Below are positions 3,938 through 64,000 of a DNA stretch of 64,000 nt, in pieces. Position 1 is the first letter of the stretch, and each line of letters starts with the position of its first letter. The position numbers were made by a program, and so were the translations under genes. The stretch comes from a virus (lineage: Duplodnaviria; Caudoviricetes): the IMG/VR virus record IMGVR_UViG_3300012952_003952, positions 177,979-241,978 of that record, one strand, 5' to 3'. The notes below the pieces were generated by a model. That model saw nothing but the letters and a program-made list of their open reading frames with translations, did not search any database and was not told the DNA's origin.

Positions 3938-4753
3938 ATGAAAGCTACAAATATCAGAGAAAAAATAAAGCTCAACAAAAAATATACCGAGCTTAATTAT
4001 TGGAAGAGTATCTTTGAAGATACCCAAGAGCTTTTTCATGCGTACGACATAGAATTAGCAGACTTTGTAAACCAAGTATCTAATATAGTCAACGAAAATG
4101 AAGCTTCGAGTGTAGAAATTTGTGATGAAGAAAATTTGGTAAAGTTTGAAGAGCAAAAACAAGATAACCAACATCAAAATTCTTACGAAGAAACTCGAAG
4201 CGAAGAATCTTTAGAGCATGATTTAGAAAACAAAAAAGCTCCAGATTGGATGAAAAAAGCTTTTAAAGCTATTGCGCTAAAAACGCACCCTGATAAAGTT
4301 CTTTATAGAGATGATCTCTCTGAAAAAGAAAAAGAACACCTGGTAAAAACTTACTCTAGAGCTGCTGATGCAGTAGCTTCTTTAAGCGGAATTTCGCTTA
4401 TAGAAATAGCCCAATCTTTAGGAATAGAGCTAGACCTAAGCCCGAAACAGCAGATTTTAATGCTGGAAAACAAGATAGAAAAAATAAAAAAAGAAGTCCA
4501 AAACCATCAACAGATGATTTCTTGGTCTTGGGGTGAAAATGAGGGTAATATAGAAATTAGAGCTAATTTGTTTCTTCACGTTTTAAGCCATTTAAAAATA
4601 GAGCCCATCCCGATAGAAAAACTCAAAAGCATGATTGAAAAATTCGAAAAGGGCGATAATTTAGTTGAAAAAACTGACAGCCGAGATAAAATATTAAAAA
4701 GAAAGGTTGGTCAAAGACCAGCTCCTGGTATAGGCAGGATGAGGAAAAAATGA
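3938..4753 (+). CDS. Protein with internal J-domain-like segment
   Basis: KKAFKAIALKTHPDK (HPD motif) at about residue 105-120. Confidence 0.6.
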   Translation: MKATNIREKIKLNKKYTELNYWKSIFEDTQELFHAYDIELADFVNQVSNIVNENEASSVEICDEENLVKFEEQKQDNQHQNSYEETRSEESLEHDLENKKAPDWMKKAFKAIALKTHPDKVLYRDDLSEKEKEHLVKTYSRAADAVASLSGISLIEIAQSLGIELDLSPKQQILMLENKIEKIKKEVQNHQQMISWSWGENEGNIEIRANLFLHVLSHLKIEPIPIEKLKSMIEKFEKGDNLVEKTDSRDKILKRKVGQRPAPGIGRMRKK

Positions 4754-39574: not shown

Positions 39575-41185
39575 ATGAGCATAAACAAGACTTTAATGTT
39601 TGATGGGGCTGCTCGTGGAGAAATACTTTCCGGAGTAGATATTATTGCTAATGCTGTAAAGAGCACGATGGGACCTAACGGGCAAACAGTAGTAATTGAA
39701 AGAGCTGGACTTCCTCCGATCTTAACTAAAGATGGAGTCACAGTAGCTCACGCAATCAACTTGAGAGACAAGTTTAAAAATCTTGGCGTTCAAATGGTCA
39801 AACAAGCTGCTGCTAGAACTGCAGAAGAAGCTGGAGATGGAACCACTACGTCTACAGTGCTTACTCATAAATTAACTTCGGAGGGAGTGAAACTAATTTC
39901 AGCAGGTTATAAAAGTTCTGAAGTCCGAGAAGGAATGCTTTGGGCTACTGAGAAAGTACTTAAAGATTTAGAAGACAGCGCACGCCCAGTCACTGAAGAC
40001 GAAGAAATAATCAACATTGGGACTATATCAGCTAATGGAGACAGGAAAATTGGCGATCTTTTGTTAGAGGCGATGAAATCTGTCGGACCAGACGGCGTAA
40101 TTTCTATAGAAGAAGCAAAAGGCTTTAGCACGAGCTTGGACACCGTGGACGGATTCCAGCTAGACAGAGGTTATATTTCTCCGTATTTTGTTACAAACCA
40201 CGATCGCTTAAGCGTTGAGTTTTCTAATCCTAGAATTTTGCTAGCTAACAAAACTATATCTAATGTTACAGAAATGCTGCCTCTTCTAGAGCAAGCTCAC
40301 AAAAATTCTATTCCTTTAGTTATAATCGCGAACGATGTCGATGGAGACGCTCTCAAAGCTTTAGTAGTCAATAATTCAAAGGGCGTAGTTAAAGTTTGCG
40401 TTATTCGAGCTCCAGAGTTCGGAGACGGGAGAGTAGATAGTATGAATGACCTTTCTCTTCTGTTCGACACAAGCGTAGTTTTCTCCGGAGAAGAATTGCC
40501 GCAAAATATAGAAGATCTTGGTACATGCGAAAGATTAGAAGTTTTTAGATCTCGTTCTGTCTTCGTCAATCCAGTGTGTACACAAGAGTCTTTAGAAGAT
40601 AGATGCCAAGCTATTCAAGAGATGTTAGTTTCTCCAGAAACTGAATTGAATCAAAAGATGCTGTTGGGTCGTAGGCTAAGTAGACTGCAGGGCGGAATTG
40701 CCGTGATAAGAGTTGGCGGTCACACTGAACTAGAACTTAAAGAAAGAAAAGATAGAGTAGAAGACGCTCTCCACGCTACCCAGGCAGCTGCAGCTAAGGG
40801 TATTTTACCAGGGGGAGGAATTGCTCTTATAAGATCTTCAAGAAATTTATTAGAAGACAAGAATTTAGAAAATCAAAGTAGAGATTTTATAGCTGGAGTT
40901 CAAGCAGTTTCTCTGTCTTGCGAAGCTCCACTCCGCCAAATTGTAGAGAATTCTGGCGGAGCTCCAGATGTAGTGTTTAATAGAGCAACTAACCCTGAAG
41001 AGCCTGACGAAGGATATGATGCACGAAAAAATGAGTTTGTGAATATGTATAAACAGGGAATTATTGATCCGTACAGCGTTGTGAGTGCCGCTCTGAAAAA
41101 TGCGTGCTCTGCTGCTACTTCGATAATCTCTATCGGTTGCGCGATGATAGAAGAAGATTCTGAAGGAATAGATAAATTAATTTAG
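39575..41185 (+). CDS. groEL: Chaperonin GroEL homologue
   Basis: TMGPNG, TKDGVTVA, AGDGTTT, SANGD, FDRG-like LDRGYISPYF, APEFGD, KDRVEDAL, GGGIAL, GIIDP; no GGM tail. Confidence 0.95.
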   Translation: MSINKTLMFDGAARGEILSGVDIIANAVKSTMGPNGQTVVIERAGLPPILTKDGVTVAHAINLRDKFKNLGVQMVKQAAARTAEEAGDGTTTSTVLTHKLTSEGVKLISAGYKSSEVREGMLWATEKVLKDLEDSARPVTEDEEIINIGTISANGDRKIGDLLLEAMKSVGPDGVISIEEAKGFSTSLDTVDGFQLDRGYISPYFVTNHDRLSVEFSNPRILLANKTISNVTEMLPLLEQAHKNSIPLVIIANDVDGDALKALVVNNSKGVVKVCVIRAPEFGDGRVDSMNDLSLLFDTSVVFSGEELPQNIEDLGTCERLEVFRSRSVFVNPVCTQESLEDRCQAIQEMLVSPETELNQKMLLGRRLSRLQGGIAVIRVGGHTELELKERKDRVEDALHATQAAAAKGILPGGGIALIRSSRNLLEDKNLENQSRDFIAGVQAVSLSCEAPLRQIVENSGGAPDVVFNRATNPEEPDEGYDARKNEFVNMYKQGIIDPYSVVSAALKNACSAATSIISIGCAMIEEDSEGIDKLI

Positions 41186-60418: not shown

Positions 60419-61492
60419 ATGAACGATCCAGTCTCTCGAGCTGAGCCAATGCAACTTAGAGATATTTGGTCTAAAGAAGACGCAGACTTTACTCCATGGT
60501 TATCTTCTGATAGTGGAATGAACTGGCTTTGTCAAGACTTAGGTTTGGAGAGTCTAAAAACAGTGGGCACAGAAGTCTATACTGGAGCGTCTAAGAGAAT
60601 CGATATATTAGCAGAACTTCCCAATGGAGACCCGATTGTTATTGAAAATCAGTATTATGCTGCTGATGATAGCCACGGTTGGAGGACTATGCACTATGCT
60701 TTATGGGCTGGTGCTAAGACAGCGATTTGGATTTTTGAAAGTGTTCCCGTACACCAAGAAAGGCTTATTGAATTTATCAACAACAATACGGAAGGCTTAG
60801 ATATTATTGGAGTTTGCGCTAAGGTTCATGACGTTGGCGCATCAAAACCGACTCTTCAGTTTGAAGTTATACCTGCAAGCCAAGAAGCTCTTGAGCGCCT
60901 TCGAGGAGCAGGCGATGTAGAAGCCGAAGTAAAACCACCTTCGAATCTGCAGAATTTTTATGGAGAATATTTTCCTGGACTTCTATCAGAAACTAACTCT
61001 GTTTTGCGAAACGGAAAGCACAACAAAGGCCATGGGGGCTATGGCTGGCAGAGTTTTTGTGAGTGGAACTCCAAGCAAGGGGGGTGGATGAAGTGGCAAG
61101 CTGCTTTTAACCAGCAAAGAGGTCGGCGAGGAGAATACAGGGTGACCATTCTTTTTAATGGAGCTAACAAAGAAGCTAATCTCTCTAGGCTTGAATACTT
61201 GAAGCAAAACTCCAAAGCTCTTTTTAACGGAATCGAATTAGAATTTGACACAGACTGGAACTCTACTATTGGCAAACACGGCCAAAAAGTCCATTTTAAA
61301 TATCCTGAAGAGGTAAAATACGAAAACCTAACTTTAGAAGACTGCCAGGGTTTGGTGAATTGGACTTCTCACGTTCTAAAAAATCTAGTTAGGAACGCAA
61401 ATAAACTTGACATTAAGTCTTATCCTTCGTCAAGTTCTACTAATACTTACTCTACGAATGGAGTAAACAACCATATTTCTATTGCCCCTTAG
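60419..61492 (+). CDS. NucS/DUF91-like PD-(D/E)XK nuclease with DUF4268-like C-terminus
   Basis: LRDIW..EDADFTPWL, RIDILA, IVIENQ, AKTAIWI. Confidence 0.75.
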   Translation: MNDPVSRAEPMQLRDIWSKEDADFTPWLSSDSGMNWLCQDLGLESLKTVGTEVYTGASKRIDILAELPNGDPIVIENQYYAADDSHGWRTMHYALWAGAKTAIWIFESVPVHQERLIEFINNNTEGLDIIGVCAKVHDVGASKPTLQFEVIPASQEALERLRGAGDVEAEVKPPSNLQNFYGEYFPGLLSETNSVLRNGKHNKGHGGYGWQSFCEWNSKQGGWMKWQAAFNQQRGRRGEYRVTILFNGANKEANLSRLEYLKQNSKALFNGIELEFDTDWNSTIGKHGQKVHFKYPEEVKYENLTLEDCQGLVNWTSHVLKNLVRNANKLDIKSYPSSSSTNTYSTNGVNNHISIAP

Positions 61493-61573: not shown

Positions 61574-63163
61574 ATGTGCGGATTTTTAACTTATTTTGGA
61601 AACAATATTGAAGAAAAAGATTTGGAGAACGCTTCTTTAAAAATTCAATATAGAGGTCCAGACAATACACAGCATGTAAGAGTTAATGAAAACTTGTTTA
61701 TGTCTTTTCATAGGTTGGCAATCATAGACACATCAGAAAATGGAGACCAACCTCTTCGGCATCCTGAAGACCCAAGCTTAGTTTTAGTTTGCAATGGAGA
61801 AATATATAACTACAAGCAGTTGATTGAAGACTATAATTTAAATGTGGACTCAGGATCTGATTGTGAAGTTATTCTGCATCTCTATAAAAAGTTTGGAATG
61901 AAAAAAACAGTCAGCATGCTGGACGGAGTATTCGCTTTTTGTTTATACGATACGAATAAAAACATCTTGTACGCAGCTCGAGATCCACATGGGGTTCGAC
62001 CATGCTTTCTTTTAGTAGAAGAAGATTTCTGCGCCCTCGCAAGTGAGGCTAAGTCCTTAAATCCAATTTCTACAAACGTAATCCCTTTTCAACCAGGGAC
62101 TTGGTGGTCTTCTGAGCACCCAAACGTTATGACTTCTTATTTTAATTTAGAGCATCATACAACAATAGATGTATCTGAAAAAGAAGCTTGCAGTGAAATC
62201 AAATCTCTTTTAACGAGCGCTGTCAGAAAAAGAATGATGGCTGACAGAGAGATTGGCTGTCTACTTTCAGGTGGTTTAGATTCGAGTCTAATTTCTTCTT
62301 TAGTCGCTTCTATGTGTAAAGATCCTAAGAAGCTCAAAACTTTTTCTATTGGAATGGAAGGAAGCCCTGATTTAGAATACGCTAAAAAAGTTGCAAAGCA
62401 TATTGGATCTGATCATCACAACGTTAAACTTACTCAGCAAGAATTTTTAGAAGCTATAGAAAAAGTTATCTACAACATCGAGTCTTATGACACTACAACT
62501 GTTCGTGCTTCTGTTGGGAATTATTTAGTTTCAAAATACATTAGCGAGAACACGAATGTAAAAGTAGTGTTCAATGGTGATGGAGCTGATGAAGTGTGCA
62601 TGGGCTACGTATATAATATAAATGCTCCAACTCTTGAAGATTTTCATCAAGAAAACCATCGGCTACTAAGAGAAATATATTTGTTTGATGTTTTGAGATC
62701 AGACAGGAGTATTAGCTCAAACGGCTTAGAAGCTCGAACTCCGTTTTTAGATAAGTCCTTTACTGAATACTACATGTCTATTCCGGCAAATATGAAAACT
62801 TTCGAAGGTGAAAAACCAGAAAAGTATTTGTTGAGAAAAGCCTTTGAGGGAGAAAATCTTCTGCCTGCAGAAGTTTTATGGAGAAACAAATGCGCCTTTT
62901 CAGACGGAGTTAGCAGTATTAAAAACTCTTGGCACAAAACTCTTCAAGAGTTTATAGACACCCAAGTAACTGATGAAGAGTTCGAAAAAGAAAAAAACAG
63001 ATTTGTTTCTTGCAAGCCTGTTCTGAAAGAAAGTTATTTTTATCGCAAGATATACGAAAAGCATTTCGGTAAAGAAATGAATTTAATTCCCCATTTCTGG
63101 ATGCCTAGATGGACTACAACTAACGACCCTTCAGCTAGAGAATTAGATAATTACAAAGAATAA
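61574..63163 (+). CDS. asnB: Asparagine synthetase (glutamine-hydrolysing)
   Basis: Ntn Cys (MCGF), RGPD, HRLAI, NGEIYN, LLSGGLDSS, GDGADE, LEARTPFLD, EKYLLR. Confidence 0.93.
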   Translation: MCGFLTYFGNNIEEKDLENASLKIQYRGPDNTQHVRVNENLFMSFHRLAIIDTSENGDQPLRHPEDPSLVLVCNGEIYNYKQLIEDYNLNVDSGSDCEVILHLYKKFGMKKTVSMLDGVFAFCLYDTNKNILYAARDPHGVRPCFLLVEEDFCALASEAKSLNPISTNVIPFQPGTWWSSEHPNVMTSYFNLEHHTTIDVSEKEACSEIKSLLTSAVRKRMMADREIGCLLSGGLDSSLISSLVASMCKDPKKLKTFSIGMEGSPDLEYAKKVAKHIGSDHHNVKLTQQEFLEAIEKVIYNIESYDTTTVRASVGNYLVSKYISENTNVKVVFNGDGADEVCMGYVYNINAPTLEDFHQENHRLLREIYLFDVLRSDRSISSNGLEARTPFLDKSFTEYYMSIPANMKTFEGEKPEKYLLRKAFEGENLLPAEVLWRNKCAFSDGVSSIKNSWHKTLQEFIDTQVTDEEFEKEKNRFVSCKPVLKESYFYRKIYEKHFGKEMNLIPHFWMPRWTTTNDPSARELDNYKE

Positions 63164-63221: not shown

Positions 63222-63521
63222 ATGTTAGATAAAATTAAGTCAATTTTGACGAAATACAAAGTTCACGTAAGCGTTGTCGGCGGTGCTCTAGTTATTGCTA
63301 CTGTTTATGGACAATGCACGCTTGAGCCAAACGTAGAAGCGGTAGAAGAAGCGGTTGAAGAAGCTGCAACAGAAGCTGCAACAGAAGCTGCAACAGAAGC
63401 GTCTACTAATGAAGAAAAGAAGGCAGAAGTTGTAGAAGCTGATGCTGCTATCATGACTGAAGAAGCAACTAATGAAGATGCGACTACTTCTGAAGCCACT
63501 ACAGAGACCGAAGAAAATTAA
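63222..63521 (+). CDS. Membrane-anchored Ala/Glu/Thr-rich low-complexity protein
   Basis: AGGAG RBS; TM VSVVGGALVIATVYG; EAAT repeats. Confidence 0.65.
   Translation: MLDKIKSILTKYKVHVSVVGGALVIATVYGQCTLEPNVEAVEEAVEEAATEAATEAATEASTNEEKKAEVVEADAAIMTEEATNEDATTSEATTETEEN
63360..63400 (+). repeat. 12-bp tandem repeat GAAGCTGCAACA x3.4 (codes EAAT)
   Basis: Read directly from sequence. Confidence 0.9.
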
Positions 63522-63606
63522 AATAATTTTGTTTTGTGTTGAACAATAAGCGTTTTGAGTTTAAAATAAAACATAATTTACTAAACGTTCTTTAACATTG
63601 ATAATA

Positions 63607-64000
63607 AGACCCTGGTTCTCGGGTCTACAAACCTGGATGAGATTTACCGATCTCCAGGCATTAGCGAAAGCTATTGATAGAGAAAACCTCGTTTAGGAAA
63701 GGGGCGTTCTTACGTCTATCGTGCTGCCTGACTAAGAGAGGGGATGAGTTAAAGGGGGTGGTACCTCTGAATATCATCCAGTAATTCGATGCATGAGCTT
63801 TCATACCACTGAGAGAATACTGCTGAGAGTATCCACGGATTTCGTAGATTCATCGTGGAAACGGGATAAAGGCACACCAAGAAAAAGTCTTGGGAAGGAG
63901 TTTCATTAAGATCCTCTAGAATCTAACTGTCGGTGATAGAAGTCTCTCTGGCGGAATCGGAAACGAGACCGTCGTCCTGAAAGGGGTCTGGTGGACATCC
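63607..64000 (+). ncRNA. Large multi-hairpin non-coding RNA candidate, running off the window end
   Basis: No ORF called; GC higher than flanks; stems AGACCC/GGGTCT, CCTGGA/TCCAGG, TAGC-GAAA-GCTA, GATAGA/TCTATC, GGATGA/TCATCC, CCACG/CGTGG, CCAAGA/TCTTGG, GTCTC/GAGAC. Confidence 0.65.

Follow-up and report, generated by a model that had tools for sequence, protein, structure and literature searches.

An uncatalogued family of large non-coding RNAs with an intricate predicted fold in marine jumbo phages

Introduction

The question examined here is whether a gene-free stretch of a phage genome encodes a structured RNA and, if so, whether that RNA belongs to a known class. We analyzed a window of 64,000 nt, which is the last 64 kb of a 241,978-bp IMG/VR viral record (CheckV completeness 57%). 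An earlier note, made from the sequence alone, had proposed that window positions 63607–64000 hold a large ornate non-coding RNA, either a member of GOLLD or ROOL or a new class. We show that the stretch is the 5′ part of a non-coding RNA of about 661 nt that belongs to an uncatalogued family carried by many marine jumbo phages. The RNA resembles GOLLD and ROOL in size class and setting but matches neither of their models, and its function is unknown.

Results

Properties of the gene-free stretch

Positions 63607–64000 contained no ORF over 47 aa on either strand. The + strand folded better than dinucleotide shuffles (z −2.47; 0 of 100 shuffles as good), whereas the − strand did not (z −0.23). 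The G+C content rose to 47%, compared with 31–42% in the neighboring genes. A search of Rfam 15 detected only the two tRNAs at gathering thresholds and only chance-level hits at E ≤10 in the region, and blastn against 50,697 GenBank phage records gave no match. The window end is the end of the viral record, and the element is therefore cut by the contig end and not only by the window.

The hairpins and GNRA-type loops described in the earlier note are real and conserved; the GCGAAAGC tip lies at 63664–63671. However, three details of the note did not have the suggested meaning. The two CTGAGAG copies (63809 and 63823) were identical in only 5 of 74 family members and are the 3′ strands of two different helices. 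TGATAAT (63599–63605) was not conserved and lies inside the transcript that conservation implies. TGCCT (63725–63729) does not pair with either AGGCA; it is the 3′ strand of the local helix P5a, whose pairs covary with 63693–63697. The 5′ boundary is about 20–30 nt upstream of 63607, at an invariant GUUCUUU.

Completion of the element

The exact AsnB-like protein encoded just upstream of the stretch was also found on an ENA metagenome contig (L002), and the identical product matched Pfam Asn_synthase/GATase_7. L002 was 100% identical to the window over the 521 nt compared and ran 1.0 kb further. The complete element extends for about 661 nt from GUUCUUU to a hairpin plus U-run about 250 nt past the window end, and the window therefore holds the 5′ 414 nt (63%). 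In L002 the gene-free gap was 757 nt, lying between a small acidic membrane protein gene and an FKBP-type peptidyl-prolyl isomerase gene, with a tRNA-Gly(UCC) following (L002 12694–13207 for the last two). The complete stretch folded with z −3.78, held no ORF over 50 aa, and again matched no Rfam family. The features of the locus are as follows.

61574–63163 (+): asparagine synthetase (AsnB-like) gene, used as the anchor to find L002.
63222–63521 (+): upstream neighbor, a small protein with an N-terminal hydrophobic segment and an acidic repeat tail; not part of the RNA.
63539–63567 (+): sigma70-like promoter TTGAAC-17-TAAAAT (L002 11954–11982), with an inferred start at about 63574–63576, roughly 12 nt before GUUCUUU.
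63587–64000 (+): the 5′ 414 nt of the RNA; the rest is read in L002 12416–12662.
63587–63593 (+): GUUCUUU, with a near-invariant UCUUU core that is the proposed 5′ strand of the closing helix, pairing with GGAGA about 535 nt downstream, beyond the window.
63608–63625 (+): hairpin P2, whose loop UUCUC (63616–63620) pairs with GAGAA (63680–63684) as pseudoknot PK-A.
63632–63676 (+): hairpin P3 (63632–63658) and hairpin P4 with a GAAA tetraloop (63659–63676).
63687–63741 (+): P5 domain with H-type pseudoknot PK-B, in which loop UCUUA (63708–63712) pairs with UAAGA (63733–63737).
63742–63830 (+): arms P6/P6a (63742–63779) and P7/P7a/P7b (63784–63830), whose tips kiss through GUGGUA (63758–63763) and UACCAC (63804–63809) as contact PK-C.
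63832–63925 (+): hairpin P8 (63832–63859), whose loop (63845–63851) pairs with 63919–63925 as PK-F, with P9 (63869–63891) and P10 (63897–63917) between.
63926–63938 (+): 5′ strands of the long-range helices P11 and P11a, whose partners are about 150 nt downstream, beyond the window.
63949–64000 (+): P12 (GNRA loop, 63949–63974), P13 (GAAA loop, 63976–63985), and the 5′ strand of P14 (63986–63992), cut by the contig end.

The only difference seen in the neighboring small gene was the copy number of a tandem 12-nt unit (GAAGCTGCAACA; window 63350–63400), which has 3 copies in the window and 2 in the otherwise identical L002 (11649–11936), with a different count in a relative described below (L003). 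The exact 99-aa small protein was not on record.

A family of homologous RNAs

A search with the FKBP and AsnB proteins found no relatives in IMG/VR, but a syntenic relative (L003) was reached through a 78%-identical FKBP. L003 has the same 757-nt gap. Its RNA was about 89% identical to that of L002, whereas the upstream spacer and the flanking protein were less conserved, and the differences in the RNA look compensatory. We then scanned with blocks that are invariant between the two copies and obtained, step by step, 20 IMG/VR contigs and two phage-sized contigs binned into marine MAGs. Members are referred to below by their contig numbers. Two loci (L011 and L012) retrieved with the pattern GGAAACGGGATAAAGGCA had no nhmmer hit and are chance matches, as are four of the six hits in genome contigs. 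nhmmer confirmed 134 loci. Of these, 104, in IMG/VR and marine metagenome contigs, were full-length and fell into 74 clusters below 95% identity. The extracted stretches measured 648–712 nt, including about 15 nt of flank, and were 62–89% identical to the window's copy. The copy in L017 (3034–3712), a complete 204-kb phage genome, aligned full-length to the window's RNA (nhmmer E about 1e-190; HMM positions 3–662).

Most members were collected with patterns that fix AAGTCTCTCTG and AGTGTACAG, and the invariance of these two blocks is therefore partly ascertainment; in the 11 loci found with other patterns, they were also invariant apart from one mismatch in L017. A pattern taken only from the 5′ domain retrieved the same IMG/VR contigs, which indicates that the two halves travel together. 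Five phage records of 184–317 kb each held exactly one copy; two are complete with terminal repeats and one is 94% complete. The record names (TARA scaffolds, a TMED MAG) point to the ocean. The two MAG contigs, L145 (PBIO01000025.1; 101 kb) and L148 (NHDW01000006.1; 306 kb), are deposited as parts of Halobacteriovorax sp. SP2999 and Methylococcaceae TMED69, respectively. The first has the same length as an IMG/VR viral record. They are probably phage contigs binned with bacteria and are at best a weak host hint. Apart from these two, no copies were found in bacterial genomes or prophages.

Secondary and tertiary structure

RNAalifold predicted 163 pairs on 16 members, 88 of them with compensatory double changes, and 135 pairs on 74 members (alignment A5), 97 of them with double changes. 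An unbiased mutual-information scan over all column pairs recovered the helices and exposed further Watson-Crick long-range contacts, and several central pairings were replaced accordingly. The curated model has 182 pairs in 39 helices, including six pseudoknot or kissing-loop contacts. Counted on the 74 sequences, 97.5% of the cells were paired, compared with 40–47% in slid controls; 129 pairs showed double changes, compared with 41–49; and the covariation score was 0.441, compared with ≤0.107. None of 500 shuffles reached any observed measure, although the structure was derived from the same alignment on which it was counted. The window/L002 copy forms 179 of the 182 pairs; 100 of the curated pairs lie wholly in the window and 30 have their 3′ partner beyond its end. 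Substitutions showed no codon periodicity (0.206/0.203/0.202) and ORFs were not conserved, so a coding reading was rejected.

The six long-range contacts, in A5 columns, are as follows.

PK-A: P2 loop UUCUC (41–45) with GAGAA (120–124); 99.2% paired, 3 of 5 pairs with double changes, e.g. CUUUC/GAAAG and CUCUU/GAGAG.
PK-B: loop UCUUA (150–154) with UAAGA (180–184); 99.7% paired, 4 of 5 pairs with double changes. Variants in the wider 6-nt register include UUCUUG/CAAGAG, UUCUAA/UUAGAG, UUCAUA/UGUGAG, and UUUACA/UGUAAG.
PK-C: kissing loops GUGGUA (205–210) and UACCAC (251–256), 6 bp; pair 209–252 is UA 51 / AU 17.
PK-F: P8 loop (292–299) with the strand before P11 (391–397); 7 bp, 99.6% paired, with GC/AU/GU switches at three pairs.
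PK-D: terminal hairpin loop (739–742) with a loop of the 3′ domain (643–646); CG 40 / UA 34, UA 50 / GC 9, and UA 43 / CG 31.
PK-E (weaker): 355–358 with 631–634, linking the 3′ domain to the body; 90.9% paired.

An alternative pairing of the P2 loop with GAGA at columns 607–610 was rejected in favor of PK-A, which covaries. In regards to the local helices, all 8 P3 pairs and all 3 pairs at the base of P4 showed compensatory changes, and all stem pairs of the P6 and P7 arms except one in P7a showed double changes. For P11 and P11a, columns 398–404 with 556–562 and 407–410 with 546–549 were 99% paired, and 7 pairs showed double changes. The P12 loop was GAAA or GCAA in 73 of 74 members (GCAA 44, GAAA 29), and the P13 loop was GAAA in 71 of 74. 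The helix inferred to close the body (UCUUU with GGAGA; columns 4–8 with 606–610) was 99.2% paired but showed no compensatory change, and it is proposed rather than proven. These results indicate a compact architecture in which a roughly 600-nt body is followed by a roughly 110-nt 3′ domain and a terminal hairpin, with conserved GNRA tetraloops and long invariant purine-rich junctions. Nearly every hairpin loop of the 5′ half is locked by a Watson-Crick tertiary contact.

A screen for loops that stay self-complementary while changing sequence found none. Only one invariant palindromic loop emerged: a 3-bp hairpin (L002 12455–12465; columns 515–525) presents the loop GUACA, and the hexamer UGUACA, made of the last stem base plus this loop, is self-complementary. 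It is a candidate for a symmetric kissing contact but lies inside an ascertained block.

Transcription signals

A sigma70-like promoter was enriched just upstream of the RNA, with 45% of members scoring ≥9.5 compared with 9% of shuffles. The −10 hexamers are TATAAT, TATACT, or TATATT, ending mostly 8–25 nt before UCUUU. In the window the best-placed candidate (63539–63567) is kept in L013 (TTGAAC..TAAAAT) and L003 (ATGAAC..TAGAAT), although its use is inferred from sequence. The TGATAAT of the earlier note belongs to a second promoter-like match, which would start transcription inside the conserved hairpin P2 and skip GUUCUUU. In L017 there is no promoter, and the RNA begins 5 nt after tRNA-Lys-CCA. 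In L014, L015, L016, and L023 a tRNA-Ser lies about 55 nt upstream. Overall, 22 of 105 members have a same-strand tRNA within 100 nt upstream.

All members end in a covarying hairpin followed by a U-run. In L018, L019, and L022 this hairpin is a strong GC stem plus U7, and in L005, L007, L009, and L020 a second canonical terminator hairpin follows. In the window's own clade, however, the hairpin is weak (a 5-bp stem, then CCCCCUUUU) and the FKBP start codon follows about 30 nt later, so read-through into FKBP is possible there.

Genomic context

The neighbors of the RNA are tRNAs, AsnB, a TilS-like ATP-binding protein, RNase T, FKBP, and Hsp70. tRNAs lie within 2 kb in 12 of 26 loci with 2 kb of flank on both sides. 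A homologous small protein lies upstream of the RNA in L003, L013, L014, L015, and L016. FKBP directly follows the RNA in one clade (L002, L003, L013, L014, L015, and L016), lies 1.3 kb away in L009, and is not adjacent in the other members; no protein is an obligate partner. The window also encodes GroEL (39575–41185) and a 1,199-aa DNA polymerase (PHROG phrog_405). With FKBP and Hsp70 (L003, L009), these phages carry a whole chaperone set. A conserved 357-aa protein with no PHROG match or recorded Pfam hit (60419–61492) sits between tRNA-Met and tRNA-Asn, in the same place in L002 and L003. L017 carries a tmRNA (346–766; tag ANNNYYFEESRLAA, Rfam 120 bits) in the same tRNA island as the RNA, together with an unusually long, 95-nt "tRNA-Ile(UAU)" at 3952–4046.

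Comparison with known RNAs

The RNA matched no Rfam 15 family, including group I and group II introns, known ribozymes, RNase P, tmRNA, 6S, SRP, and OLE, at E ≤10 on the full-length L002 copy or at E ≤1 on eight divergent members; only tRNA and tmRNA hits outside the element and chance-level hits were obtained. The GOLLD model (RF02032, gathering score 150 bits; RF01998 is group-II-D1D4-1, a group II intron domain model) and the ROOL model (RF03087, gathering score 99.1 bits) also found nothing in the phage record. For ROOL the control genomes of the latter search hold no ROOL, and the evidence rests on the cmscan searches.

GOLLD is a large structured phage RNA of unknown function with a complex fold and kissing loops, often next to tRNAs or co-transcribed with them, and marine examples are known (PMC12286853). 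GOLLD is often over 800 nt and has a conserved 3′ region and a variable 5′ region (PMC12286853), whereas the present RNA is about 660 nt and both of its halves are conserved and always co-occur. ROOL averages 581 nt, has many multistem junctions, several pseudoknots, and intertwined 5′ and 3′ parts, is found in phages near tRNA islands, and has no known partner protein (PMC5737381, PMC12286853). The present RNA occurs in marine jumbo phages rather than rumen or Firmicute prophages, has far more highly conserved nucleotides than reported for ROOL, and has six rather than three covariation-supported long-range contacts. OLE is likewise an ornate RNA of about 600 nt with extensive conservation, but it is bacterial (Bacillota extremophiles) and works with dedicated proteins. 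The IMG/VR catalogue of candidate structured RNAs holds only motifs of 29–151 nt (PMC10690425), and full-text searches found no description of such a family, which does not prove that it is unpublished.

Discussion

We conclude with high confidence that window positions 63587–64000 are the 5′ part of a stand-alone, phage-encoded non-coding RNA gene of about 661 nt. Of the two alternatives in the earlier note, the second, a new class, is supported; the stretch is not an intron or IS end, and covariation is abundant. Transcription from its own sigma70-type promoter, or behind a tRNA in some phages, and termination at the terminal hairpin plus U-run, whose loop also docks onto the 3′ domain, are inferred. 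The biochemical function is not known. By analogy with GOLLD and ROOL, which form RNA-only cages through kissing loops and A-minor contacts (PMC12286853; PMC5737381), we tentatively favor a trans-acting folded RNA particle, RNA-only or bound to a few proteins and possibly homo-oligomeric, made during infection as part of the phage's tRNA, translation, and chaperone takeover region. The oligomer idea rests only on this analogy and on the UGUACA loop. A more speculative and rather doubtful possibility is a third, evolutionarily independent class of self-assembling phage RNA. In this case the compact monomer would oligomerize through its remaining free conserved loops (the palindromic GUACA loop, the GNRA tetraloops, and the UUAC loops), some of the tertiary Watson-Crick contacts would in fact be intermolecular, as turned out to be the case for ROOL, and the result would be an RNA-only cage or lattice made during infection by marine jumbo phages.

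Two other modes of action are less likely, and equally so. A ribozyme, for example one that processes the tRNA-island transcripts or performs another RNA reaction, would account for the large size, the many pseudoknots, and long invariant unpaired stretches such as AUAGAGAAAAC, GAAACGGGAUAAGGGC, and GGGAGAAAG, properties that are commonly argued to predict sophisticated biochemistry (PMC5737381). The RNA is also embedded among tRNAs and starts 5 nt after one in L017. However, no known ribozyme or intron model matches, no substrate or cleavage site is evident, and only about a fifth of members sit directly behind a tRNA. Alternatively, the RNA may be a scaffold or decoy that sequesters a host factor such as a ribosomal protein, RNase, or defense protein, for which OLE binding bS21 and 6S binding RNA polymerase are precedents. 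Several loops are conserved but free (three UUAC-type loops, CUCCCAAGG, and GUACA), and neighboring genes are translation- and chaperone-related, but no protein gene is universally adjacent and there is no resemblance to 6S, OLE, Y RNA, or SRP models.

A long cis-acting 5′ leader of FKBP is very unlikely. The FKBP start codon follows the RNA by about 30 nt with no strong terminator in L002, L003, and L013, and FKBP also follows in L014, L015, and L016. Against this, the downstream genes are unrelated in L017 and in the members with strong terminal or additional terminator hairpins, and the size and tertiary complexity far exceed those of known leaders. It is equally improbable that the RNA is a very divergent GOLLD or ROOL or a degenerate intron or mobile-element remnant, despite the size class, phage host, and tRNA neighborhood shared with GOLLD and ROOL (PMC12286853). 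No hit to RF02032, RF03087, or any intron model was obtained at permissive thresholds in nine members or in the phage record, both halves are equally conserved, unlike GOLLD, and the RNA is single-copy with no flanking exons and no intron-encoded protein.

Very few bacterial or phage RNAs are this large and this intricately folded. Those known either turned out to be ribozymes or RNP cores or, like GOLLD, ROOL, and OLE, remain functionally unexplained despite striking cryo-EM structures. A further abundant, independently evolved class in uncultured marine jumbo phages makes giant phage RNAs near tRNA genes a recurring solution rather than a curiosity. The deep covariation model, with 74 diverse sequences and six tertiary contacts, gives a well-defined target for structure determination, and the setting among tRNAs, tmRNA, and chaperone genes may help to work out what such RNAs do during infection.
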